A stretch of DNA of 36,995 bases from IMG/VR virus record IMGVR_UViG_2565956608_000011. One strand, given 5' to 3'. The notes beneath the pieces are model-generated. The model searched no databases. It saw only the letters and a program-made list of their open reading frames with translations, and was not told the DNA's origin. How positions within the stretch are numbered: the first letter of the stretch is position 1; every line of letters starts with the position of its first letter. Source of the DNA: a virus (Duplodnaviria > Heunggongvirae > Uroviricota > Caudoviricetes). Below, piece after piece: positions 8,830 to 36,995 of this stretch. A program made the translations under genes and the position numbers.

Positions 8830-10002
8830 TTACGCGCTGACCTGGCTGGCGAAATTCACCAGGTACTGATCGGTGATGCGCTGGCGCAGCATCAGATTTT
8901 CAAGTGGCGGCACTGGCGTGTAGTCGTAGTCGATGGTGAGTTTTCCGGCTTTCAGGGTGTCTTTGTCGTTCACCGACTCGTCCAGCCAGCAATCACCACC
9001 AATGAGATACCCCTGACTTACCAGGCTGCGCATTTTGGCGCGGATACCTTCGATAATGTCGCGGGCCAGCGACGGGTTCAGCGGTTTGTCCACCGCCCAC
9101 ATGTGCGCTTCTGCCATTGTGTCCGTCAGCACCTGCGCCGTGCGGGTGTAGTTTTCGAAGGCAAAGAGTGGGTCATCACTCAGGCAGCGGGAACCCCAGA
9201 AGCGAAAGCCGTCTTTGCGGATAAGTGTGGTAACATCGTTCTGGTTAAGCAGTCCCGCATCAGTTGCCGGGTCCTGCAGATCCCAGAACACATCAGCAGA
9301 AATTCCGGTGACACCGTTCACGCCCACGTTGGACAGGCTTTTGTGCCACCCTGTCTGCTCATCAATTTTGGCACGCAGACCGAGCGCACGGGCGGTGGCA
9401 TATGCCGTTGCGTCGGCATTCAGCACCGTGTCCCAGCCAGTAAAGTCAGGCCAAATCAGCATTCCTTCGCGCTGGCTGAAGTTTTCACGGTAAGTGATCG
9501 CCTCCTGTACCGTCTTGCAGCCATACGCTGACAGGTAAGCAAACCCACGCAGGCTTTGCGCCACGCTCAGCAACTCAGTCGCAACGGCTTTGTTATCGTG
9601 ACCTGGCACGCCGAGAATGCGCGGTTTAACGCCGAGCTGTGACTGGGCAGATAGCAGGGCTTTCATGCCTGTTTTTTTACCTTCAGCAGTCACAGCGCCG
9701 ATGATATTGGTCGTGGTTTCGTCTTCCGTTTCACCCTGCGGCACACGCACAACAACGGTCACGGGTTTTGCCTGATCAGCGATGGCATCCAGCGAACGGG
9801 CCAGAGTACCGGACTCACCCGCTTTACCGCTGGCAGTCAGCACATCAGTGATCAGCACGGGTTTATTAAGAGGAAACATTTTTGCATCGGCATCATCGCC
9901 CGTGCAGACCATACCCACGATGGCGGTGCTCACCGTGGTAATGGATCGGGTGCCTTCGTTGACTTCAACAACGCGCACCCCGTGGTGGTAATCCTGAGCC
10001 AT
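8830..10002 (-). CDS. FI: contractile tail sheath protein FI
   Basis: 390-aa ORF, first gene of the FI-FII-E-T-U-D block. Confidence 0.85.
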
Positions 10003-10078
10003 AGTGGCGAACCTCCTGATTGGATTAGGCTTCGCCCTATGTTGAAGTGATTGTGCCCGACAAACAGCTAAGTGTAGT

Positions 10079-10096
10079 TGTACAGTTATTCACACA
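10079..10096. promoter_or_regulatory. TGT-N12-ACA dyad, candidate Ogr-dependent late promoter element upstream of FI
   Basis: TGTacagttattcacACA centred ~85 nt upstream of the FI ATG; same dyad type recurs upstream of V and in the O/P divergent region. Confidence 0.45.
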
Positions 10097-10144
10097 AAAT
10101 GACGGTATTTGTCTGCTTGCAGGGATAATCAAAATTATGCTGAT

Positions 10145-10711
10145 TCAGGGGGATTCATTGCTCTTATTTGCCGGAAATTTTCTATAAATGGTAGAAACGC
10201 CTACATCAAAAATCAGTGCAATACGCTGTCTTGATTCTCCGGCCTCGAGTAAACGTCCAATCTGTGCCCACTGTTCGGTGGTCAACTTAGGACGGCGTCC
10301 ACCTACTCTGCCTTTGGCGCGAGCTGCAGCAAGCCCCGCCCTGGTACGTTCAACTATCAGTTCGCGCTCCATTTCAGCCAGGCCCCCCATGACATGAAAA
10401 AAGAAACGGCCCATTGGGGTGCTGGTATCAATACTGTCAGTCAGGCTTCGGAAATTCACGCCACGCTGACGCAACTCTTCTATCAGCGTAACAAGATGCC
10501 GCATACTGCGTCCCAACCTGTCCAGCTTCCAAACAACCAGCGTGTCTCCTGCCGATAGTGTCCTGAGTAGTTTTTTCAGCCCCGGTCTGTCGGACTTAGT
10601 GCCACTGATTTTGTCCTCAAAAATCCGCTCACATCCCGCGCAGTTCAGTGCATTACGTTGCAAATCGGTGTTCTGGTCATTTGTTGACACGCGTACATAG
10701 CCAATAAGCAT
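10145..10711 (-). CDS. serine-recombinase DNA invertase (Gin/Cin/Pin/Hin family)
   Basis: N-terminus MLIGYVRVSTNDQNTDLQRNAL with catalytic-Ser region, C-terminal HTH (GVSTIYRKF); start taken at ATG 10711 (AGGGGA RBS 6 nt upstream) rather than 10717. Confidence 0.85.
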   Translation of the reverse strand: MLIGYVRVSTNDQNTDLQRNALNCAGCERIFEDKISGTKSDRPGLKKLLRTLSAGDTLVVWKLDRLGRSMRHLVTLIEELRQRGVNFRSLTDSIDTSTPMGRFFFHVMGGLAEMERELIVERTRAGLAAARAKGRVGGRRPKLTTEQWAQIGRLLEAGESRQRIALIFDVGVSTIYRKFPANKSNESP

Positions 10712-10766
10712 GATCATTCCCCTGAATAAAAACCGGAGATGATGCCAGTTAGCTGTTACCTCTGCA

Positions 10767-10792
10767 TTTTCATAAACGTTGGTTTGGGAGAA
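10767..10792. repeat. 26-bp invertase crossover site (cix/gix/hix-like), invertase-proximal
   Basis: TTTTCATAAACGTTGGTTTGGGAGAA; its 14-nt right half equals the reverse complement of the left half of the site at 12658-12683; half-site resembles the Hin/Gin consensus TTCTCnnAAACC. Confidence 0.7.
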
Positions 10793-11152
10793 GCAGCGAA
10801 ACGGGGTGTGGGGACAGGGGAAAATCAGATACCGGACATGGCCTCTTTTGCCAGTGGTGATGGATGGATGAAATTACCCAACGGGAAAATCCTGCAATAT
10901 GGTCGTGGTGCGGTTACGCCGACATTATCGACGCAAACAATGAGAATTACATTCAGCATCCCTTTTCCTAAAAAAGTGGACTGCGCCATGCTTACTCATT
11001 CTGGTGATGGTGGTGCGCCTTTAGGTGCTGGGCGGGGATTCGTGATGACCGCAGAAGGCCCAACATTAACCGGTTTTAATTCCGCTTACAGAACTGCATC
11101 AACCAGTTCCACAGTATCGATGAATTACAGTTGGTGGGCTGTTGGTGAGTAA
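10793..11152 (+). CDS. alternative tail-fibre C-terminal segment (Hv'), silent in this orientation
   Basis: open frame continuing from the GLGE codons in the crossover site; would fuse in frame to the constant part of H after inversion; no own start codon. Confidence 0.6.
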   Translation, partial: AAKRGVGTGENQIPDMASFASGDGWMKLPNGKILQYGRGAVTPTLSTQTMRITFSIPFPKKVDCAMLTHSGDGGAPLGAGRGFVMTAEGPTLTGFNSAYRTASTSSTVSMNYSWWAVGE

Positions 11153-11172
11153 TTTTATTCAGGGTGATTTAT

Positions 11173-11616
11173 ATGAACGAATATGTTTATAGCGCAAGGC
11201 ATAATGCTTTTTTCCCTGTGGATATGATTGATAAATATAAATCAGAGGGATGGGATTTATCAGACGCTAAGGAAGTAAATCAAAATATTATCAGTGAGTT
11301 TATGGCTGAACCGCCACAAGGAAAAATCCGTATTGCCGGAGATGATGGGCTGCCTGCGTGGGCAGATATTCCTCCACCCACGCATGAAGAACTTATTGAA
11401 ATTACTGAATCAGAAAGACAGCTACTAATTAACCAGGCCAACGAATACATGAACAGTAAGCAATGGCCCGGTAAAGCCGCTATTGGTCGTCTGAAAGATG
11501 ATGAACTGGCGCAATATAATTTGTGGCTGGATTATCTGGACGCACTGGAACTGGTTGATTCCTCCAGTGCGCCAGATATTGAATGGCCTACGCCTCCGGC
11601 AGTTCAGGCCAGATGA
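11173..11616 (+). CDS. alternative tail fibre assembly protein (G')
   Basis: 147-aa ORF from ATG 11173 (AGGGTG RBS); C-terminus (DYLDALELVDSSSAPDIEWP) parallels that of the minus-strand G protein; convergent with G. Confidence 0.7.
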   Translation: MNEYVYSARHNAFFPVDMIDKYKSEGWDLSDAKEVNQNIISEFMAEPPQGKIRIAGDDGLPAWADIPPPTHEELIEITESERQLLINQANEYMNSKQWPGKAAIGRLKDDELAQYNLWLDYLDALELVDSSSAPDIEWPTPPAVQAR

Positions 11617-12190
11617 CATCCGGCGCGGTGCTGGTATCTGTTGCCGTCACCGCGTCAATGTAATCCAGCACAGCGTTAAGGCGGGTTGTTTCTGCCTGCG
11701 TCAGCTTCCGTCCGGCCTGTAATTTCAGTTGAATCAGACTGATGGAGGCCATTGCAGTATCAATCAGCGACTGGCGCAGTGCTTCTGCTGCATCTACTGC
11801 TGCGCCGTGCTGTGCCTCGGTATCTGTCACCCATTTCTCACCATTCCATTTATCGTATGGCGTTAACGGGGCGATAGTGGTTGTATTTTCAGGATAATCA
11901 CCCGGAGCTGTGATTTCTTTCGATTCTCCTGTTTCGGTGCTATAGACGATTTCACCGCGATGATCTGGCACATATTCCCATGAATTTAAATCCATCGAAC
12001 GGCAGATAGCATAACCCGCCTTATGTGTGCCAGGGGCATCTAAACAGGAATATGCAGGGATACCGACACCAATGGCAAGATATTCATTTGAAGTGGAAAT
12101 ATATTCCCGAGTTTCACCATCATAGTTATAGACGGTAATATTCCCCGCCTTCGTGGCAATAAGCTCGCTATTTAATACGGCGTTATCCAT
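11588..12190 (-). CDS. G: tail fibre assembly protein G
   Basis: 200-aa ORF immediately downstream of H with overlapping stop/start. Confidence 0.8.
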   Translation of the reverse strand: MDNAVLNSELIATKAGNITVYNYDGETREYISTSNEYLAIGVGIPAYSCLDAPGTHKAGYAICRSMDLNSWEYVPDHRGEIVYSTETGESKEITAPGDYPENTTTIAPLTPYDKWNGEKWVTDTEAQHGAAVDAAEALRQSLIDTAMASISLIQLKLQAGRKLTQAETTRLNAVLDYIDAVTATDTSTAPDVIWPELPEA

Positions 12191-13719
12191 TATGCAGCCC
12201 TCACGATAAAGTTAAATGCAATATTTCGTGGACGGGTTTCACTCCCGCCAGTATTACCGATACTCCCTCGTGAATGAAGTGTCGGTGATGGGATCAGACT
12301 CCCTCCTGTATTTGTGGCATCAAGTCCCCGTCCTTGTGTGTATGTCTTTTTGAAAATCGTAGCCAGTTCCCATTCATCTTTTGTGTCGTAACCATCATTG
12401 GCAACAACAATATGACGGTGCTTTTCCAGCATCCCAGCCTGAAGGCTCAATAAAGCACGTCCTGCATCAATACCGCGCCCATCATCCCAGCCACGAATAA
12501 ATTCACCTCGTAAATCAGGCAATTTATTTGTAGGGTAAGCCTTTGCCAGTTCCGGGTATTCTTCAGCAGAAAAAGCCGCACCATTGCATTTCAGCCAGCC
12601 TGTTGGCGGAGTGGCTGAAGGCCACGGAACAGGCACCCCAACAGGTAATGCTGAGCCTTCTCCCAAACCAAGGTATGCGAGAAGACCTGCTACATCCTTT
12701 CCACTCAAATGAGTCAGCGTATTGTCCAGCGGTTGTTTACCTGCCAGCGCATTAAGCATTGTCGTGGCAAAGTTCGGATCATTCCCCAGTGCCGCCGCCA
12801 GTTCGTTCAGTGTATCCAGTGCCGCAGGTGCAGAACCCACCATTGCCGCAATCGCCGATTTCACAAATGCCGTGGTGGCAATCTGTGTATTGTTGACCGA
12901 CTGTGCCGCAGTAGGTGCTGTTGGCGTTCCGGTGAGTGCCGGACTCGACAGCGGCGCTTTCAGTGCCAGCGCATTATTAATAGTGGTACTGAATTTCGGG
13001 TCATTGTTAATGGCTGCGGCAATTTCTTTCAGTGTGTCCAGCGTGGCTGGCGCACCGTTAATCAGAGCAGTAATAGCGGCCTGAACAAACTCTGTGGTCG
13101 CAATCCGAGTGGTGTTATTTCCTGCTGCAGGCGTCGGCGCTTTTGGTTCTCCGGTAAATGTCGGATTATGTTTCTGCGCATACTGGGTATGAGGATCTTG
13201 TGCGGCAATGTGGTTTCTCATCTGGTCATCCACATACAGCTTTAATTCCAGGACTTTATCATCCACGTATTTACGGGTTGCCAGCACTACAGCAGGGTCG
13301 ATTTTCAGGGTGATATTGTCCGTGCTGCTGGTAATCAGCACCATGCGCACGGTCTGGGTACGCCCGCTGCCTTCAGCCAGTTGCGGCTTATAGCTTTCCG
13401 GGCAGTTTCCCACGGCAATCAATGCCCCGGACTCATCAAACAGGCCCACTTCACGTATCCACCAACCGCCCTCGTTTTCAGGGATCACCTGTTCAGCAAT
13501 AATCTGGCTGCTGTTCTGCGGGTCGATATAAAGCATATTCAGCGCAGCCCGGCGTTTCTCATTTACCAGTGCCGTCTGCTTTGCGTCCGGCGTTGGCAAT
13601 ACTCCGCCGCCATCGCCCACCGCCATATGGGTAATTTTTAGCGGCACACCGAGCGCGGCGGCGCTGGCAAGTTTCGCCGCGCCAATATCCGTCAGCAGGG
13701 TATAAAATTTTGTGCTCAT
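12190..13719 (-). CDS. H: tail fibre protein H (constant N-terminal part 12684-13719 plus currently expressed variable C-terminus 12190-12657)
   Basis: 509-aa ORF with Ala/Thr-rich repeats (TxxLINGAPAxLDTLxExAAA twice); contains the crossover site at the constant/variable junction. Confidence 0.85.
   Translation of the reverse strand: MSTKFYTLLTDIGAAKLASAAALGVPLKITHMAVGDGGGVLPTPDAKQTALVNEKRRAALNMLYIDPQNSSQIIAEQVIPENEGGWWIREVGLFDESGALIAVGNCPESYKPQLAEGSGRTQTVRMVLITSSTDNITLKIDPAVVLATRKYVDDKVLELKLYVDDQMRNHIAAQDPHTQYAQKHNPTFTGEPKAPTPAAGNNTTRIATTEFVQAAITALINGAPATLDTLKEIAAAINNDPKFSTTINNALALKAPLSSPALTGTPTAPTAAQSVNNTQIATTAFVKSAIAAMVGSAPAALDTLNELAAALGNDPNFATTMLNALAGKQPLDNTLTHLSGKDVAGLLAYLGLGEGSALPVGVPVPWPSATPPTGWLKCNGAAFSAEEYPELAKAYPTNKLPDLRGEFIRGWDDGRGIDAGRALLSLQAGMLEKHRHIVVANDGYDTKDEWELATIFKKTYTQGRGLDATNTGGSLIPSPTLHSRGSIGNTGGSETRPRNIAFNFIVRAA
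12658..12683. repeat. 26-bp invertase crossover site inside the tail fibre gene
   Basis: TTCTCCCAAACCAAGGTATGCGAGAA, in inverted orientation relative to the site at 10767-10792. Confidence 0.7.
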
Positions 13720-14321
13720 GGATTCACTCTCATTGTGTCAATAACATGGACCGCCCCGCCTTCATGCGCGGTGCCACCGGAAATAATCGTTTCGTTGATA
13801 TACGGATAGATCGTGATTTCTTCGCCAAGATAGCTGGCGGCTCCCACCCAATGCGGGCCGCTGGTCTGCAGATTGATGGACATGCCGATCATGTGGCGGC
13901 TACATGGTTTGGCATCGCTTATCAGTCGCTCAAGTTCCAGATAGGTATCTTCAGTGATGCCCTGGTCCTGCACGCCGATATCCAGGCGAAACGTGCCCGG
14001 TGTTTCTCCGGTCTGCCACCACTCAATAATGCGGATCAGGAATCCGAACGGTTCCACCACCCGCCGCACGGCACTGGTGGTTCCTTTATGCTGATGAATA
14101 TAAAAAGCATCCTTCACTACCTGGCGTTTGACGCTTTCTGTCCAGCCCTCGTCCCAGCGATCCACAGAGAACGCCCAGGCGAGATAAGGCAGGAAGCTGA
14201 CCGGACAGGTAGCCGGATTCCACAAGTCACGCAGCGGCACCTGCAAATCAGAAATCCCGCTACAGGTTTGCGCCAGTCGGCGCTCCAGTGAAGTTGAACC
14301 CGGTGGCAGCAGACTATTCAT
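13716..14321 (-). CDS. I: baseplate protein I
   Basis: 201-aa ORF between J and H; P2 synteny. Confidence 0.8.
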   Translation of the reverse strand: MNSLLPPGSTSLERRLAQTCSGISDLQVPLRDLWNPATCPVSFLPYLAWAFSVDRWDEGWTESVKRQVVKDAFYIHQHKGTTSAVRRVVEPFGFLIRIIEWWQTGETPGTFRLDIGVQDQGITEDTYLELERLISDAKPCSRHMIGMSINLQTSGPHWVGAASYLGEEITIYPYINETIISGGTAHEGGAVHVIDTMRVNP

Positions 14322-25025: not shown

Positions 25026-26585
25026 TCAACCTTCATAGAGAAGTTTTTTCTTACGTATCTCTTCACTAAATGTCTTGGAATTCAAGTCAATCAAATTAAG
25101 ATCTCGAACTTTTCTAGATGCTGTATATTGACTAGTATCCAGCATATATGCCTCAAAAACTAAGCCATCAGCACCTTTCTTCAAAGTAACCCGAGACTGG
25201 ACTAAATGCACTAATCTTAAATCAATTAACTGGTTAATAGCATCCTTGACAGGGCCAGTCATTTTTTGATTAATTAGAAAAATATTACATTTTGCATCAT
25301 TCAAACAAAATGCCACAAGTTTTGTGAATGCTTCCTCCAAGGCAATACGATCATCATCAGCATCTAATTTAAATTCTTCACGCTTGATATCACCATATTC
25401 ACCAGTAGCAAGATTCACATCTTCTGCACCAATTCGAGGACCTCTAGGATGATCTGGCCCTCTTTCTCTCGCATGGTTAATAGCTTTAGTAAATATCCCA
25501 ATAAAGTCCCTAGTAACACCACCCGAAGCAATAATCAACCTATCTACTGCAGTCGTATTTAATAGTCCATTTACTGTGATAGGCGGCGTTTCTACCATTA
25601 GATTAGTGAGTATTTTTTGCATAAACTGTTTTAAAGTTGCAAATTTTTCCAAAGAAATATCTATATTTATTTCTTTTGCATCATCACCAAGTTTAACACC
25701 AGTAGGAGGATCTGTATGAATATACCATTCACTTCTATGCTTGATAGTACCAATTTTCAACCACAAACCATTTCCTTTGGCAACCCTATGAAAATAATCA
25801 ATAACTTTAGCCTGATCACTTCTTCTAATATGATATAGATCATCAAGTATTAAATATGCCGGCCCTTCAGACAATTCGGAAAGTTTGTTAAAAAACCTTT
25901 GAAACTTAAGTATATTTTGATGTAAGTATTCAGTTTTTAATGATTTATATCCTTCACTAATTTCTTTGGTACCTGTATTTCCTTTTTTAACTCCCACTCC
26001 TACATCTACTGGACCTTGCTTCAAGGAAGCATTACCAGAAGCTTCAAAACTTCTTGTGGAAGTTTCCTTTCTTTGCACATTAATTTCTTCTGGCTGCAAA
26101 AGTTTATTTTCTAAATCTTGAATGATGCCTTTGAGCTCACGGACAAGCTCATTTGTAGGATTTTTTTTGAAAGGTTTCCTTTCCGGCGCTCTACCAAAAA
26201 TTCGATTCCAAAAAGTAGTTTTAGTAGCTGGGGTTAATGCAGCAGTTTCTAACCAAACCTCGAATTCTTGTAGGCTTTTAATAAGAACACTAATTAGGAC
26301 ATCAGGGTATGAATGACCTTTAAATGTCTCCATATCAACAAAAGAAATTGGTCTTCTATCTATTGTTAGATCTGCAACTACCTTCCTCAACAATGAGGAC
26401 TTACCAGAGCCCCTTCTACCAAAAATCAAACTGTGCTGCTTGGCTTTCGATTGAGCAAGAACGCCAGGCGCGGGTTCTATGAATCTCTTGACATTTTCAG
26501 GCGTAGCCCTCATAGCTTCATCACACAAAATGATCAAGTTATCTACTTGTTCATCTCTTAACTGAGATATTTCGTTTTTAGACAT
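25026..26585 (-). CDS. cargo P-loop NTPase of unknown function (candidate anti-phage protein)
   Basis: 519-aa ORF with Walker A GRRGSGKSS (aa ~57-65) and Walker-B-like LILDDL (aa ~240) separated by a Lys/Glu-rich insert; AT-rich unlike the phage backbone; AAGGA RBS. Confidence 0.6.
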   Translation of the reverse strand: MSKNEISQLRDEQVDNLIILCDEAMRATPENVKRFIEPAPGVLAQSKAKQHSLIFGRRGSGKSSLLRKVVADLTIDRRPISFVDMETFKGHSYPDVLISVLIKSLQEFEVWLETAALTPATKTTFWNRIFGRAPERKPFKKNPTNELVRELKGIIQDLENKLLQPEEINVQRKETSTRSFEASGNASLKQGPVDVGVGVKKGNTGTKEISEGYKSLKTEYLHQNILKFQRFFNKLSELSEGPAYLILDDLYHIRRSDQAKVIDYFHRVAKGNGLWLKIGTIKHRSEWYIHTDPPTGVKLGDDAKEINIDISLEKFATLKQFMQKILTNLMVETPPITVNGLLNTTAVDRLIIASGGVTRDFIGIFTKAINHARERGPDHPRGPRIGAEDVNLATGEYGDIKREEFKLDADDDRIALEEAFTKLVAFCLNDAKCNIFLINQKMTGPVKDAINQLIDLRLVHLVQSRVTLKKGADGLVFEAYMLDTSQYTASRKVRDLNLIDLNSKTFSEEIRKKKLLYEG

Positions 26586-26966: not shown

Positions 26967-27707
26967 ATGACTGTGCACAAGCTCTCTGGTGCGTTTTTCC
27001 ACGATATGCAGGTTGAGTGGCCCTGCCCTAACTGCAATCAGAAAACCCTACAGATCATTAAAGAAAGTTTCGTCTCGTATGACACACATGATACCCGAAA
27101 ATTCCGCAGTGAAGATTGGTTTGAACCAGAAATGGATTCATCTATTTTCAGTTGCATGGCCCGCTGTTCAAGAATGCAATGTGGTGAAGTTGTGGCCTGT
27201 ACTGGTAAGAGTGGATGGGAACAAGGTTGGGATGAAGAAAGAAATGATATTGAGTACTATCAATGGCACAGACCTTTCACCTTTTACCCATCACTGCATC
27301 CTTTCGAAATACCTAAAAAATGCCCAGAAGAAATTACCGAACCGCTTGAAGCCTCATTTTCCATTTTCCTAATACAGCCTGGCGCAGCAGCAAACCTAAT
27401 TCGAATTTCAGTTGAAAGAATGCTAACCGCTATGGATGTAGCTGAACGTAATGATAATGGCAAACGCATAACTCTACACCACCGTTTAGGGATGCTACCT
27501 GAATTATACGGATCGTTTTCAAGACCTCTTATGGCAATTAAATTTTTAGGAAATGCCGGAAGCCATACCTACGATGAAGTAAAAGTCAAAGACATTGAGG
27601 ATGCTTTTGAGATTATGGAGTACGTCGTCAATGACTTGTTCTCCGGTCGCAAAGAATCTGTCGAAGTATTGACGAAACGATTAAGTGAAAAATTCAAAGA
27701 AAACTGA
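26967..27707 (+). CDS. cargo protein: N-terminal zinc ribbon plus C-terminal DUF4145-like domain (candidate defence protein)
   Basis: 246-aa ORF with GAGGAA RBS; CPNC...C-x3-C-x4-C cysteine cluster; C-terminal region (LGNAGSHTYDEVKVKDIEDAFEIMEYVVNDLF) resembles DUF4145 from memory; AT-rich. Confidence 0.55.
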   Translation: MTVHKLSGAFFHDMQVEWPCPNCNQKTLQIIKESFVSYDTHDTRKFRSEDWFEPEMDSSIFSCMARCSRMQCGEVVACTGKSGWEQGWDEERNDIEYYQWHRPFTFYPSLHPFEIPKKCPEEITEPLEASFSIFLIQPGAAANLIRISVERMLTAMDVAERNDNGKRITLHHRLGMLPELYGSFSRPLMAIKFLGNAGSHTYDEVKVKDIEDAFEIMEYVVNDLFSGRKESVEVLTKRLSEKFKEN

Positions 27708-33586: not shown

Positions 33587-34183
33587 ATGTCAACATCAAA
33601 GTACCCAAATGAGATCAAAATAAATCCCAATAAAGGTGGTAAGGCTGCGATTGAGCGATTAGTCGAAGCTTATGGCTTTACGACACGACAGGCTTTAGCT
33701 GATCACTTGGAAGTATCAAAAAGCACTCTGGCGAACAGGTATTTGCGGGATACGTTTCCTGCAGACTGGATAATCCAATGTGCTCTTGAAACAGGAACCT
33801 CACTGAAATGGTTAACCACCGGGCAAGGCCTTAAGCAAAGCTCGCTGACAGCAGCTACAGAAGAGCTTGCCAAGTTTCGCCTTACCGCAGGCAAAATGAT
33901 TGAAGATGGTTCATATGTCTTCGATTCATCATTTCTTCCTGCAAATCTTTCATCACCAATTGTTATTCAGGATGGGCTCGTCACATACATTTGTGATCAA
34001 AAATTTTCTGAAGTACTTGATGGGCACTGGTTAATCAACATCGACGGAACCTATTCCATTCGAAAAATCACAAAGCTTCCAAAAGGTATGATTAAAATTA
34101 CAAGTACAGAGAATAGCTTTGAATGTGCATTTTCTGATATTGAAGTAGTTGCTTGTATAAGAAGTACAATAGTTTCAAATTAA
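33587..34183 (+). CDS. cI: immunity repressor CI (186-type, two-domain)
   Basis: 198-aa ORF with N-terminal HTH region (TTRQALADHLEVSKSTLANR), placed between apl and int. Confidence 0.75.
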   Translation: MSTSKYPNEIKINPNKGGKAAIERLVEAYGFTTRQALADHLEVSKSTLANRYLRDTFPADWIIQCALETGTSLKWLTTGQGLKQSSLTAATEELAKFRLTAGKMIEDGSYVFDSSFLPANLSSPIVIQDGLVTYICDQKFSEVLDGHWLINIDGTYSIRKITKLPKGMIKITSTENSFECAFSDIEVVACIRSTIVSN

Positions 34184-34203: not shown

Positions 34204-35880
34204 ATGAATTCATTTTCCATCGTTATATTCTTATTAGCATTTCTCGCCCCCATTCTAGCTGTAATATTATTTAAGCAAAGCAAAAAACATAAAGCGGCTA
34301 TAGATACCTTGACAGCTAACAACATAGCCCTTTCCAACCAACTGAAAGAAAATCAAGAAGAATTAGCACAGACTGTACGAGATCTATCAGAGCTTGAAGG
34401 ACGAGCTGCACCATTATGGCAATACGTAGAATTGCACAGCGCAGTGATGGAAGCAGAGAATAAGATAAAAAATGCAGACTCAATAGCCAGGCAAAAAATA
34501 GAAGAAGCCCAAATAAAGGCTGCTAAGACAGTAAACGAAGCAAATTATCAAGCTCAGATAAAAATAAGCAACGCTAATAGCGAAGCTATAGCAATTACTA
34601 AAGACGCTCGCGATGCACGCCTGAAAGCTAAAGAACGTCTTGATAATGCCAATAGTAAAGCAAATGAGCTGATCTCAAATGCTAATGACAATGCAGTGAA
34701 AATTATTTCCGATGCAGAAGAAAGAGCAAAAGAGATTGCTGGTTCAGCATATGAAGCTAAAGAGTTTGCAGAAAAATATGAAGCAGTTGCCAAATCAATG
34801 AAAAATAAAATTGAAGGTTATGGTGATGAATGGATCATCCCTAACCGTAGCGTTCTCGATGAATTGGCAGAAAATTATGAGTTTACAGATGCAGGCAAGG
34901 AATTACAAAAAGCCAGGGAGTTAACAAAATCATTAATAAAAACTAATAAAGCTGCTTCGTGTGATTATGTTGAACAAAACAGGCGTAATACTGCTATCAA
35001 CTTTGTTTTAGATGCCTTCAATGGAAGAGTTGACAGTATTTTATCAAAAGTCAAACACAACAATTTTGGAAAACTTTCCCAAGAGATAAAAGATGCGTTT
35101 CAACTTGTAAATTACAATGGTTCTGCCTTTAGGTCCGCAAAAATAAGTGACATCTATCTTCAAGCTCGACTCAACGAGCTAAAATGGGGTGTTGCAGTTA
35201 ATGAAATTATGCTCGAAGAAAAAGAAGAGCAAAGAAGGATTAAAGAACAACTTCGTGAAGAGGAAAGAGCTCGTAGGGAGTATGAAAAAGCGATAAAAGA
35301 AGCTGAAAAAGAAGAGAAAGCTATTCAGCAAGCTATAAATAAAGCAACAAAAGAGCTTATGCTTGCAAATGAAGAACAACGCTTAGCTTTAGAGCAAAAA
35401 ATAGCTGAACTACAGTTAAAATATGAAGAAGCTGAAGCTAAAAACCAACGAGCTATTTCTATGGCTCAACAAACTAGATCAGGCCACGTTTATATAATTA
35501 GTAATATTGGCTCATTTGGCGAAGATGTATATAAAATTGGAATGACACGCCGCCTTGAACCACTTGATCGTGTTCGTGAACTCGGTGATGCTAGTGTTCC
35601 TTTTTCGTTCGATGTTCATGCGATGATTTATAGTGATGATGCACCATCATTAGAAAATCATCTGCATAAAGTCTTCAACGAAAAACAGGTCAATAAAATT
35701 AACTCACGAAAAGAGTTTTTCAACGTAAATATTAAAGAAATTAAGTCTGTTATTGAAGATATGAACATCAACGCACAATGGACAATGTTTGCGGAAGCGA
35801 AAGAATATAGAGAGTCACTGGCGATTGAGCAAGAGCGCAAAGCAGCAACTTCCGCCAACGATGAACTGCATGTTGCTTAG
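34204..35880 (+). CDS. cargo protein: N-terminal TM anchor, long coiled coil (DUF4041-like), C-terminal T5orf172/GIY-YIG-like domain
   Basis: 558-aa AT-rich ORF inserted between cI and int; hydrophobic N-terminus SIVIFLLAFLAPILAVILF; repeated NANS/NADS heptad segments; C-terminal HVYIISN...YKIGMTRRLEPLDRVREL. Confidence 0.6.
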   Translation: MNSFSIVIFLLAFLAPILAVILFKQSKKHKAAIDTLTANNIALSNQLKENQEELAQTVRDLSELEGRAAPLWQYVELHSAVMEAENKIKNADSIARQKIEEAQIKAAKTVNEANYQAQIKISNANSEAIAITKDARDARLKAKERLDNANSKANELISNANDNAVKIISDAEERAKEIAGSAYEAKEFAEKYEAVAKSMKNKIEGYGDEWIIPNRSVLDELAENYEFTDAGKELQKARELTKSLIKTNKAASCDYVEQNRRNTAINFVLDAFNGRVDSILSKVKHNNFGKLSQEIKDAFQLVNYNGSAFRSAKISDIYLQARLNELKWGVAVNEIMLEEKEEQRRIKEQLREEERARREYEKAIKEAEKEEKAIQQAINKATKELMLANEEQRLALEQKIAELQLKYEEAEAKNQRAISMAQQTRSGHVYIISNIGSFGEDVYKIGMTRRLEPLDRVRELGDASVPFSFDVHAMIYSDDAPSLENHLHKVFNEKQVNKINSRKEFFNVNIKEIKSVIEDMNINAQWTMFAEAKEYRESLAIEQERKAATSANDELHVA

Positions 35881-35963: not shown

Positions 35964-36995
35964 ATGGCAGTACGAAAACTCACCACAGGAAAATGGCTTT
36001 GCGAATGTTACCCCGCCGGACGTAGTGGACGTCGTGTGCGTAAACAATTCGCCACCAAAGGCGAAGCTCTGGCTTTTGAGCGTCACACGATGGAAGAAAC
36101 CGAAGCAAAGCCCTGGCTGGGTGAATCAGTGGATCGTCGAACACTGAAAGACGTGGTTGAACTATGGTTCAAACTACATGGTAAATCTCTGACAGCTGGG
36201 CAGCATGTCTATGACAAATTGCTGTTGATGGTTGACGCTCTGGGCAATCCCCTTGCAACCGATCTCACCTCTAAAATGTTTGCCCACTATCGAGATAAAC
36301 GTCTGACAGGAGAGATCTACTTCAGCGAAAAATGGAAGAAAGGAGCAAGCCCGGTCACCATTAACCTGGAGCAAAGCTATCTAAGTAGTGTTTTTAGCGA
36401 ACTATCCCGCCTGGGCGAATGGTCGTATCCGAACCCACTGGAGAACATGCGAAAATTCACCATCGCAGAAAAAGAGATGGCATGGCTTACCCATGAGCAG
36501 ATTGTTGAATTGCTGGCTGATTGCAAACGTCAGGACCCAATTCTGGCACTGGTAGTTAAGATATGCTTAAGCACAGGCGCACGTTGGCGTGAAGCCGTAA
36601 ATCTTACCCGCTCACAGGTGACCAAATACCGAATTACCTTTGTAAGAACGAAGGGGAAGAAAAACAGAAGCATCCCTATCAGTAAAGAGCTTTACGAAGA
36701 GATCATGGCGCTTGATGGGTTCAATTTCTTTACAGACTGCTATTTTCAATTTTTATCCGTGATGGAAAAAACGTCTATCGTGCTCCCTCGCGGTCAACTG
36801 ACACACGTTCTGCGCCATACGTTTGCGGCGCACTTCATGATGTCGGGTGGAAATATCCTGGCCTTACAAAAAATTCTCGGGCATCACGATATAAAAATGA
36901 CTATGCGTTACGCACATCTGGCACCGGATCACCTGGAAACTGCATTACGGTTTAATCCGCTGGCAACACTACCAACATCAATAGCAAGTTTTTGA
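35964..36995 (+). CDS. int: tyrosine integrase (P2/186 family)
   Basis: 343-aa ORF with C-terminal catalytic region (RHTFAAHFMMSGGNILALQKILGHHDIKMTMRYAHL); stop codon is the last triplet of the window. Confidence 0.85.
   Translation: MAVRKLTTGKWLCECYPAGRSGRRVRKQFATKGEALAFERHTMEETEAKPWLGESVDRRTLKDVVELWFKLHGKSLTAGQHVYDKLLLMVDALGNPLATDLTSKMFAHYRDKRLTGEIYFSEKWKKGASPVTINLEQSYLSSVFSELSRLGEWSYPNPLENMRKFTIAEKEMAWLTHEQIVELLADCKRQDPILALVVKICLSTGARWREAVNLTRSQVTKYRITFVRTKGKKNRSIPISKELYEEIMALDGFNFFTDCYFQFLSVMEKTSIVLPRGQLTHVLRHTFAAHFMMSGGNILALQKILGHHDIKMTMRYAHLAPDHLETALRFNPLATLPTSIASF

Follow-up and report, generated by a model that had tools for sequence, protein, structure and literature searches.

A probable Pin/Gin/Cin/Hin-type inversion switch in the tail fiber module of a P2/186-like Escherichia coli prophage

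The window analyzed here, a stretch of 36,995 nucleotides taken as a whole, holds an apparently complete P2/186-like E. coli prophage in which the tail fiber module runs H, tfa, an alternative tfa, an alternative fiber tip, a DNA invertase gene and the sheath gene FI. In the P2 reference, H is followed by G, a terminator, fun(Z), pF and FI, and the cassette thus occupies the Z/fun position between the assembly gene and FI, as a previous reading of the sequence alone had proposed. We found no Fun(Z) homology in the interval, where every ORF falls to the invertase, fiber-tip or Caudo_TAP families. The fiber gene H (12190-13719, minus strand, 509 aa) is present in its Collar-tip form and comes last among the structural genes of the late operon V-W-J-I-H in the order given by the PGAP annotation. 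Its constant N-terminal part (12684..13719, minus strand, ~350 aa) matches Pfam Phage_tail_fib over residues 1-150 (E 7e-65), and its variable C-terminus in the expressed orientation (12190..12657, minus strand) adds a StfE-like tip of 155 aa after the peptide GLGE, with the Pfam Collar match at residues 361-408 of H and 91% nucleotide identity to e14 stfE in the proximal part. The gene that follows (11588..12190, minus strand) encodes a TfaE-like assembly protein of 200 aa (Caudo_TAP, E 7.6e-32) and is 89% identical to e14 tfaE at the nucleotide level.

A second fiber set lies on the opposite strand. The alternative fiber C-terminus, which is not joined to H here (10793..11152, plus strand), comprises 119 aa after GLGE, matches Gp53-like_C (E 3e-13), falls in PHROG tail fiber families and belongs to a silent plus-strand ORF at 10739-11152, or 10742-11152 from its second ATG. 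The partner of this gp53-like tip is an alternative assembly protein (11173..11616, plus strand, 147 aa; Caudo_TAP, E 7.9e-31; PHROG 188), whose ORF starts at 11164 or 11173, ends at 11616 and is named "tail fiber assembly protein" by PGAP in the 100%-identical segment of strain MB20. The two Caudo_TAP genes are convergent and overlap by 29 bp at their 3' ends, just as in e14, and the similarity between them is limited to a C-terminal region of 80 aa with 33% identity.

The serine DNA invertase gene (10145..10711, minus strand, 188 aa) is intact and is transcribed away from the invertible segment; the ORF extends over 10145-10717, with the PGAP start at 10711. Its layout is that of a protein of about 190 aa in which a serine-recombinase catalytic domain at the N-terminus precedes a helix-turn-helix at the C-terminus, the two being represented by Pfam matches to Resolvase (residues 5-137, E 5.5e-53) and HTH_7 (residues 140-183, E 1.5e-15), and a serine invertase is indeed present where the sequence-only reading had placed one. 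That reading had called it Gin/Hin-type, and here the subclass (Hin/Gin/Cin/Pin) held while the nearest relative turned out to be e14 PinE, with 85% amino acid identity compared to 76% for Cin and 73% for Mu Gin. It matches the structure of Gin (PDB 3UJ3) at E 2.9e-92, compared to E 7.5e-34 for the gamma-delta resolvase, and the protein belongs to PHROG 125 "DNA invertase" (E 1e-99); together with the identities to PinE, Gin and Cin, this places it nearer to characterized invertases than to resolvases. Neither the invertase nor the fiber parts had a specific model in NCBIfam, where all matches were far under the cut-offs. An inactivating mutation around the catalytic serine had been named as a finding that would refute the switch, but this region is intact: S9, R7, R42, D64, R65 and R68 are all present and invariant in an alignment with PinE, Gin and Cin. 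In Hin, residues K47, K/R48, K/R51, Q151, R154 and L155 are invertase-specific contacts to Fis and the enhancer (PMC3798978), and the protein encoded here carries these same residues as K46, K47, R50, Q150, R153 and L154, that is, at the Hin numbering minus 1.

The segment is flanked by two hix-like sites of 26 bp, imperfect palindromes that are inverted relative to each other and have the same central dinucleotide, at the very positions that the earlier reading had given. Site L, proximal to the invertase (10767..10792), reads TTCTCCCAAACC AA CGTTTATGAAAA on the minus strand with its central dinucleotide at 10779-10780, and site R, inside H (12658..12683, plus strand), reads TTCTCCCAAACC AA GGTATGCGAGAA with its central dinucleotide at 12670-12671. 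The exact core common to both, TTGGTTTGGGAGAAG, translates to GLGE in both fiber frames, as had been noticed before, although it is 15 nt long rather than the 14 nt then reported. The inverted repeat formed by 10767-10793 and 12657-12683 (27 nt, 81% complementary) is the longest in 9900-13900, and of 500 shuffles of the 4-kb region, only one contained an exact inverted repeat of 15 nt or more whose arms were separated by 100 nt or more. Site L is identical at 26 of 26 positions to the pin-proximal pix site of e14, site R has the same segment-side half-site as site L and the two e14 pix sites, and the layout of the sites matches pix, cix and gix. The distance from the crossover to the invertase start is 68 bp, compared to 68 bp in e14 and 67 bp in Mu. 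We also considered a shufflon or Min-like multi-site cassette and rejected it, as there are only two sites in the window: no further half-site or full site besides L and R was found in the 37 kb, a third crossover site was not detected even when one half-site was allowed as many as 2 mismatches and the other as many as 7, and long inverted repeats are absent.

The 5' end of the invertase gene probably contains a recombinational enhancer, for which Fis binding is predicted. This putative element (10626..10693, minus strand; gene nt 19-86) aligns without gaps to the enhancer annotated at nt 19-86 of P7 cin. Its mean column identity is 87% over five invertase genes, a conservation that is confounded by coding constraint, and within it, two 15-mers of the form G-N13-C (gene nt 22-36 and 71-85) lie in register, 49 bp start to start, a pattern to which coding constraint may likewise contribute. 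Enhancers of this invertase subclass have two Fis sites spaced by about 48 bp. From this homology, we infer that inversion would depend on Fis. The invertase promoter presumably lies in the spacer between the invertase start and site L (10712..10766), which also holds the ATG (10739/10742) of the promoter-distal ORF and a weak terminator-like hairpin on the minus strand (10750-10731). A scan for consensus promoters detected none for the invertase and none on the plus strand for the silent ORF. The sequence ahead of FI showed no convincing conservation in an alignment to the pF promoter and Ogr site of P2, and we therefore did not place a late promoter.

The earlier reading had also predicted that inversion would replace the C-terminus of H (12190-12657) and its assembly protein with the products of 10793-11152 and 11173-11616, and the in silico inversion bears this out. 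Flipping 10779-12671 (1893 bp) keeps the H reading frame and yields H' of 473 aa with the gp53-like tip, so that the 155-aa Collar tip and 200-aa assembly protein are exchanged for the 119-aa gp53-like tip and 147-aa assembly protein, and each orientation provides a complete in-frame fiber gene followed by its own assembly gene. The two variable tips had been described as unrelated in sequence, and we likewise detected no similarity between them (E 1.2); they belong to different Pfam families. Because the tips are unrelated at both of these levels, the two orientations likely differ in host range or receptor.

Both orientations occur in nature. The window's own orientation is matched by 97 complete E. 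coli genomes, and the in silico flipped 3.8-kb sequence by 77 at a coverage of at least 80%, six of these 77 being full-length, single-piece matches (best identity 97.4%); the cassette in one or the other orientation is thus present in at least 174 complete E. coli genomes. Strain MB20 is 100% identical to the window over 10000-13800 and 99.46% identical over 1-32556, after which the two diverge in the immunity/integrase end. A pair of chicken isolates, GPEC673 and GPEC1366, are the same over 9819 bp save for 1881 bp between the shared cores, which are an exact reverse complement without a single mismatch, and the 473-aa H' fusion is intact in GPEC1366. The change from collinear to reverse-complemented sequence falls at the outer edge of each shared core, which confines the crossover to sequence common to the two sites, inside the 26 bp. 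That these two segments differ only by the flip points to a very recent event.

These genomes bear on two other explanations. Inverted repeats can recombine homologously and can mislead assemblers, and the inversions seen among genomes might in principle stem from RecA-dependent recombination or assembly error. We consider the probability of this to be negligible, since an exact match of 15 nt is far too short for efficient RecA action or for confusion in complete long-read genomes, and the GPEC673/GPEC1366 crossover maps only inside the 26-bp sites, beside a dedicated invertase. The cassette could also be a frozen relic with recognizable parts that no longer recombines here, the differences in orientation being old events or the result of flipping in trans by other invertases. 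It would fit this explanation that one assembled sequence shows a single orientation, that some related cassettes carry IS1 or IS4 insertions, and that Pin-family invertases act in trans, as PinQ of Qin does on the e14 P segment by flipping it (PMC12529663). Nevertheless, we find a relic very improbable: no catalytic residue is missing from the full-length invertase ORF, both sites retain the conserved half-site and matching core dinucleotides, 9.8-kb prophage segments that are otherwise identical differ only by the flip, and the orientations are near 1:1 in genomes (97 to 77).

We therefore consider it very probable that this locus functions as a site-specific inversion switch of the Pin/Gin/Cin/Hin type in the tail fiber module of a P2/186-like E. 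coli prophage, on the basis of the intact invertase, the two inverted sites with identical central dinucleotides, the identity of site L to e14 pix, the spacing shared with e14 and Mu, the occurrence of both orientations in genomes and the exact flip in the GPEC pair. The P2 prophage cassette of EPEC E2348/69 and the e14 P segment, both homologous to the one studied here, have been found in both orientations within single-colony cultures (Goldberg 2014, PMC4272514), and the relatives together with this EPEC cassette suggest indirectly that inversion between the two sites occurs. By the Hin/Gin paradigm, invertase dimers would bind both 26-bp sites, and host Fis would occupy the putative enhancer, which falls within the first ~90 bp of the invertase gene. 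Within the invertasome so formed, Ser9 would cleave each site at its central dinucleotide (10779-10780 and 12670-12671), half of the tetramer would rotate by 180 degrees, and the ends would rejoin with 10779-12671 (1893 bp) inverted. By its sequence, the late transcript encodes H (509 aa) with its Collar tip and the 200-aa TfaE-like assembly protein in the window, and H' (473 aa) with the gp53-like tip and the 147-aa assembly protein after flipping. Since the late genes stay off until induction, the fiber carried by the progeny of a lysogenic cell would depend on the orientation that this cell has at that moment, and a population of lysogens would consequently release a mixed lysate with two adsorption specificities. 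From the precedent of Mu, P1 and carotovoricin, we infer that such a change would amount to a host-range switch between different receptors, as the sequence-only reading had suggested.

It is also conceivable that the cassette, in addition to host-range switching or in place of it, gives the lysogen a phase-variable anti-phage device, in which the 10742-11152 product, a small free receptor-binding domain made from its own ATG outside the segment, would block adsorption of other phages in the manner of e14 StfE2. Overproduction of StfE2 is reported to block adsorption of T2 (PMC12529663), and the promoter-distal ORF, which is also called as a gene by PGAP, shares the layout of StfE2, with the leader MP..CY..IFINVGLGE ahead of a gp53-like C domain (30% identity, E 5e-9). 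The start ATGATGCCA with GGAG before it is kept in both the window and e14, and the same start is found in the EPEC cassette. Nonetheless, we hold an anti-phage role to be highly unlikely, as no plus-strand promoter is predicted upstream, the GGAG is only 0-3 nt from the ATGs, and the invertase promoter on the other strand explains the conservation of this stretch equally well. Similarity to StfE2 is weak beyond the leader, the StfE2 result itself is one of overexpression, and in a prophage that is otherwise complete, a virion function suffices to explain the cassette. A more specific idea is that the "silent" ORF is made in the lysogen from the conserved ATG outside the segment as a free receptor-masking domain, with the invertase toggling superinfection-exclusion states along with virion host range; the promoter-distal ORF is 10742-11152 at present and would become a 178-aa Collar-type ORF after flipping. 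We see this as very unlikely, but if true it would extend the 2025 report on e14 StfE2 to intact P2-like prophages.

Systems of this kind are already known, namely Mu G, P1 C and e14 P, and tail fiber switching is a well-known route by which phages reach other hosts; no new biological question is raised here unless the StfE2-like reading holds. Our analysis is of use mainly as correct annotation, in that it assigns a probable host-range switch to a P2-like prophage that is complete and probably inducible. In automated annotation, the flipped fiber gene appears as two pieces, a "pseudogene" and a separate "gp53-like" protein, and comparative and host-range-prediction pipelines will therefore misread such phages unless inversion is considered.

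Among the closest known systems is the P segment with PinE in the e14 cryptic prophage of E. coli K-12, reportedly described by Plasterk and van de Putte in 1985. It has the closest invertase (85% at the amino acid level), an identical invertase-proximal 26-bp site, the same core TTGGTTTGGGAGAAG(G) of 15-16 nt, the same 68-bp spacing from site to gene, convergent tfa genes with the 29-bp overlap, and a StfE/TfaE-type set that is 89-91% identical in nucleotides to the expressed set of the window. However, the fiber gene of e14 is truncated and e14 itself is a defective lambdoid element, whereas the window has a full-length P2-type H in an apparently complete prophage, and the StfP/TfaP set is not the second set of the window at the DNA level, the tips sharing ~30% amino acid identity. 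The cassette of EPEC E2348/69, which is ~93% forward in single-colony cultures (PMC4272514), has the same order of sheath gene, invertase, gp53-like tip, tfa, tfa and Collar-type tip, with 84% nucleotide identity overall, 77% in the invertase and one mismatch in the 26 positions of the invertase-proximal site, but it belongs to a prophage remnant that lacks the constant region of H. In another P2 prophage of EPEC, three 215-bp repeats give rise to four variants, in contrast to the two sites found here.

In Mu, the G segment has an equivalent logic, Sc plus Sv/U alternating with Sv'/U'. The invertase gene again lies beyond the segment, with 67 bp between its 5' end and the site; Gin is 73% identical, and the enhancer region at its gene start aligns. 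Mu differs in its core dinucleotide (GA/TC rather than AA/TT), its 3-kb segment with longer variable parts and its membership in another phage family, as a transposable Muvirus. The C segment of P1/P7 shares the AA/TT core, a 76% identical invertase in Cin and a cin enhancer (nt 19-86) that aligns to 10626-10693, but there cin points toward the segment of ~4.2 kb and cixL overlaps its 3' end. The H segment of Salmonella is alike in invertase subclass and 26-bp sites, and the residues of Hin reported to contact Fis and the enhancer are all conserved, so that the enhancer mechanism would be shared by homology; in contrast, Hin flips the promoter of flagellin genes and not alternative coding ends of a fiber gene. 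The Fin invertase of Fels-2 is said to be a precedent (Kutsukake, 2006). Lastly, fun(Z) of P2 occupies the same map position, between the fiber assembly gene G and the sheath gene FI, but where P2 has a single 1.6-kb lysogenic-conversion gene, the window has an invertase and a silent fiber set.

The invertible cassette, which consists of a serine invertase gene, two crossover sites and two alternative sets of tail-fibre tip and assembly genes, is carried by a P2-like prophage of E. coli. Every element described in the sequence-only reading lies where that reading placed it, and its interpretation is supported. Over 10000-13800 the sequence matches E. coli MB20 (NZ_CP073976.1) with 100% identity, and the whole window matches that genome at 99.46% identity up to 32556 before diverging at the immunity/integrase end, indicating that it is a sister of the MB20 prophage, inserted at the same site beside ybjL. 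The window runs exactly from the start codon of grxA to the stop codon of the integrase gene; the host genes grxA, ybjM and ybjL occupy 1-2620, and the prophage opens with ogr at 2856. As annotated by PGAP, the MB20 late genes form a complete P2/186-type set, running ogr, D, U, T, E, FII, FI, then the invertase, then the alternative tip, alternative tail fibre assembly gene (tfa), tfa and H, followed by I, J, W, V and others. Because the order in reference P2 is H, G, terminator, fun(Z), pF, FI, the cassette sits at the fun(Z) map position. This bears out the location proposed in the sequence-only reading, although the cassette shares only this position with fun(Z) and has no homology to Fun(Z).

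The proposed serine invertase gene is an ORF at 10145-10717 (minus strand) with Pfam Resolvase and HTH_7 domains, and PHROGs matches it to DNA invertases (E 1e-99). Its product is 85% identical to PinE of the K-12 cryptic prophage e14, 77% to the invertase of a homologous cassette in a P2-like prophage of EPEC E2348/69, 76% to P7 Cin and 73% to Mu Gin. It matches the solved structures of Gin (3UJ3, E 2.9e-92) and gamma-delta resolvase (E 7.5e-34), and the catalytic residues S9, R42, R65 and R68 are all present. Fis/enhancer-dependent invertases have been reported to uniquely conserve Hin K47, K/R48, K/R51, Q151, R154 and L155 (McLean et al., PMC3798978), and the equivalents here, offset by one, are K46, K47, R50, Q150, R153 and L154. 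The P7 record places the Cin enhancer at nt 19-86 of cin, the counterpart of which is 10626-10693. This segment aligns without gaps with pin, gin, cin and the EPEC gene and contains two G-N13-C 15-mers in register. It is consistent with a putative Fis enhancer, its conservation (mean column identity 87%) being confounded by coding sequence. Between the invertase start codon and the nearer crossover site there is also a weak terminator-like hairpin with a T-run (10731-10750, minus strand), which could either stop late-operon read-through, in the role of the P2 V-operon terminator, or dampen expression of the invertase.

The longest inverted repeat within 9900-13900 (27 nt, 81% complementary) pairs 10767-10793 with 12657-12683. 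It contains the two 26-bp inverted sites that the sequence-only reading had claimed, namely the invertase-proximal site L (10767-10792, minus strand; TTCTCCCAAACC-AA-CGTTTATGAAAA) and site R inside H (12658-12683, plus strand; TTCTCCCAAACC-AA-GGTATGCGAGAA). That reading was also right that their shared block encodes GLGE in both fibre frames (…AYLGLGEGSAL… in H and …NVGLGEAAK… in the plus-strand ORF), but the exact common core, TTGGTTTGGGAGAAG, is 15 nt long rather than 14. A separated exact inverted repeat of this length arose in 1 of 500 shuffles, and a half-site scan of the whole 37-kb window found no sites beyond L and R. All 26 positions of site L are identical to the pin-proximal site of e14, while both e14 sites, as well as the site nearer the invertase in the EPEC P2 cassette, share the AA core and the segment-side half-site TTCTCCCAAACC. 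In the suggested comparison with gix and cix, P7 cixL and Mu gix have the same layout; the core of Mu gix is GA/TC. The crossover is separated from the invertase start by 68 bp both in the window and in e14, and by 67 bp in Mu.

The fibre gene H (12190-13719, minus strand) carries the Pfam tail-collar fibre N-terminus and a Collar domain, and its tfa (11588-12190, minus strand) belongs to Caudo_TAP. On the plus strand are the alternative tip ORF (10739-11152, Gp53-like_C) and the alternative tfa (11164-11616, Caudo_TAP); PHROGs concurs, assigning tail fibre and tail fibre assembly families. No similarity was detectable between the two variable tips when they were compared (E 1.2), in line with the earlier claim that they are unrelated in sequence, and the assembly proteins are alike solely over their C-terminal 80 residues (33% identity). 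The convergent tfa genes, which lie on opposite strands, have 29 bp in common at their 3' ends (11588-11616), exactly as in tfaP/tfaE of e14, and an inverted repeat nearby (11526-11543 and 11652-11669) corresponds to their common C-terminal LDY(L/I)DA motif. The "silent" tip ORF starts at an ATGATG outside the invertible segment, with GGAG just before it, and this start is kept in e14 and the EPEC cassette. Compared with e14 and two other related loci (L002 and L008), the Collar-type variable end (12190-12420) conserves its proximal ~75 aa and its last ~17 aa, ETRPRNIAFN[FY]IVRAA, while its middle is swapped for unrelated sequence, so that the invertible scaffold itself bears exchangeable receptor-binding inserts. 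In the constant part of H, a ~50-aa motif is repeated twice in tandem at 12720-13140 (residues ~195-330), with …IATTEFVQAAITALINGAPATLDTLKEIAAAINNDPKF… and …IATTAFVKSAIAAMVGSAPAALDTLNELAAALGNDPNF… in translation.

Inverting 10779-12671 in silico leaves H in frame, giving a 473-aa protein (H') that ends in the gp53-like tip and is followed by a 147-aa assembly gene, which agrees with the proposed swap of the H C-terminus and assembly gene. Judged from its sequence, the cassette combines an intact invertase and its sites with two in-frame alternative fibre ends, each of which has its cognate assembly gene. Among complete E. coli genomes, the native 3.8-kb sequence matches 97 and the flipped construct 77 (>=80% coverage), six of the latter as full-length single pieces (best identity 97.4%). 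A genome in the opposite orientation cannot reach 80% coverage, because the segment accounts for half the query and alignment pieces are combined on a single strand only. Comparison shows that both orientations occur among near-identical prophages. Over 9819 bp, the chicken isolates GPEC673 and GPEC1366 differ only in the 1881 bp between the shared cores, which are exact reverse complements with 0 mismatches. Alignment switches from collinear to reverse-complemented at the outer edge of each core, placing the crossover somewhere within the sequence common to both sites. This pair is strong evidence that a site-specific inversion has recently taken place in a cassette of 94% identity. RecA recombination or misassembly would be an unlikely source of such inversions, as identity between the sites is just 15 nt. 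It is also unlikely that the cassette is a frozen relic, given its intact parts and this exactly flipped pair; we believe that it is probably active.

In the flipped genomes GPEC1366 and AF5, PGAP splits the intact 473-aa H' into a pseudogene ("phage tail protein, incomplete, missing C-terminus") and a second gene, for a "gp53-like domain-containing protein". The ORF runs uninterrupted in these genomes, and the split call is an artefact that invertible fibre genes systematically cause in annotation. In some other E. coli genomes (native-query matches H37, H65 and H68), IS1A or IS4/IS421 is inserted in the homologous cassette, meaning that some members of the population have a disrupted switch.

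A less likely but more interesting reading, to which we give only a very small chance, is that ORF 10742-11152 acts as a blocker of phage adsorption. Kirigo et al. 2025 (PMC12529663) found that when the e14 P segment inverts, StfE2 arises, in which a short leader is joined to a gp53-like C domain; StfE2 is reported to block T2 adsorption when produced. We rebuilt StfE2 in silico, and the window ORF has the same architecture and leader (MP..CY..IFINVGLGE), with 30% overall identity (E 5e-9). However, promoter prediction gave none for this ORF, its Shine-Dalgarno sequence is poorly spaced, and ATGATGCCA, though conserved, could just be the opposite-strand invertase promoter.

Possible defence genes lie elsewhere in the window. 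A 558-aa gene (34204-35880, plus strand) matches PADLOC PD-Lambda-1 (E 4e-120) and Pfam T5orf172/MUG113 and DUF4041. Flanked by the CI repressor (33587-34183) and integrase (35964-36995) genes, it is a defence cargo gene of the immunity-integrase hotspot, and MB20 has three different genes at this point of divergence. Between the portal gene and a DinI-like gene, in a P2 old/tin-type hotspot, are genes for a 519-aa AAA/ORC-CDC6-like ATPase (25026-26585, minus strand) and a 246-aa DUF4145 protein (26967-27707, plus strand). Their PADLOC matches are weak (mad8, 3e-6; PD-T7-4, 2e-5), and they may be an uncharacterised defence pair.

By the Hin/Gin paradigm, an invertasome would assemble on the Fis enhancer, Ser9 would cleave the central dinucleotide and the subunits would rotate by 180 degrees. 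The precedents of Mu, P1 and carotovoricin suggest that adsorption specificity would differ by orientation and that a lysogen population would release mixed progeny. Goldberg et al. 2014 (PMC4272514) reported that both orientations coexist within single-colony cultures at e14, a Mu prophage and two P2-like prophages of EPEC E2348/69. In their Table S1, a P2 locus at 2977580-2979467 is given as ~93% forward, with the repeat 'TTGTTTGGGAGAAG'. This locus aligns to the window at 84% identity, and its genes are arranged identically (sheath, invertase, gp53-like tip, tfa, tfa, Collar-type tip). The same cassette is found in phage records in which "DNA invertase" and tail fibre genes are already annotated, such as Escherichia phage 500465-1 and Klebsiella phage KP12. 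Together, these data and records indicate that this type of system is already known, P2-like prophages included, and the cassette described here is an ordinary and probably active member of a well-known family.
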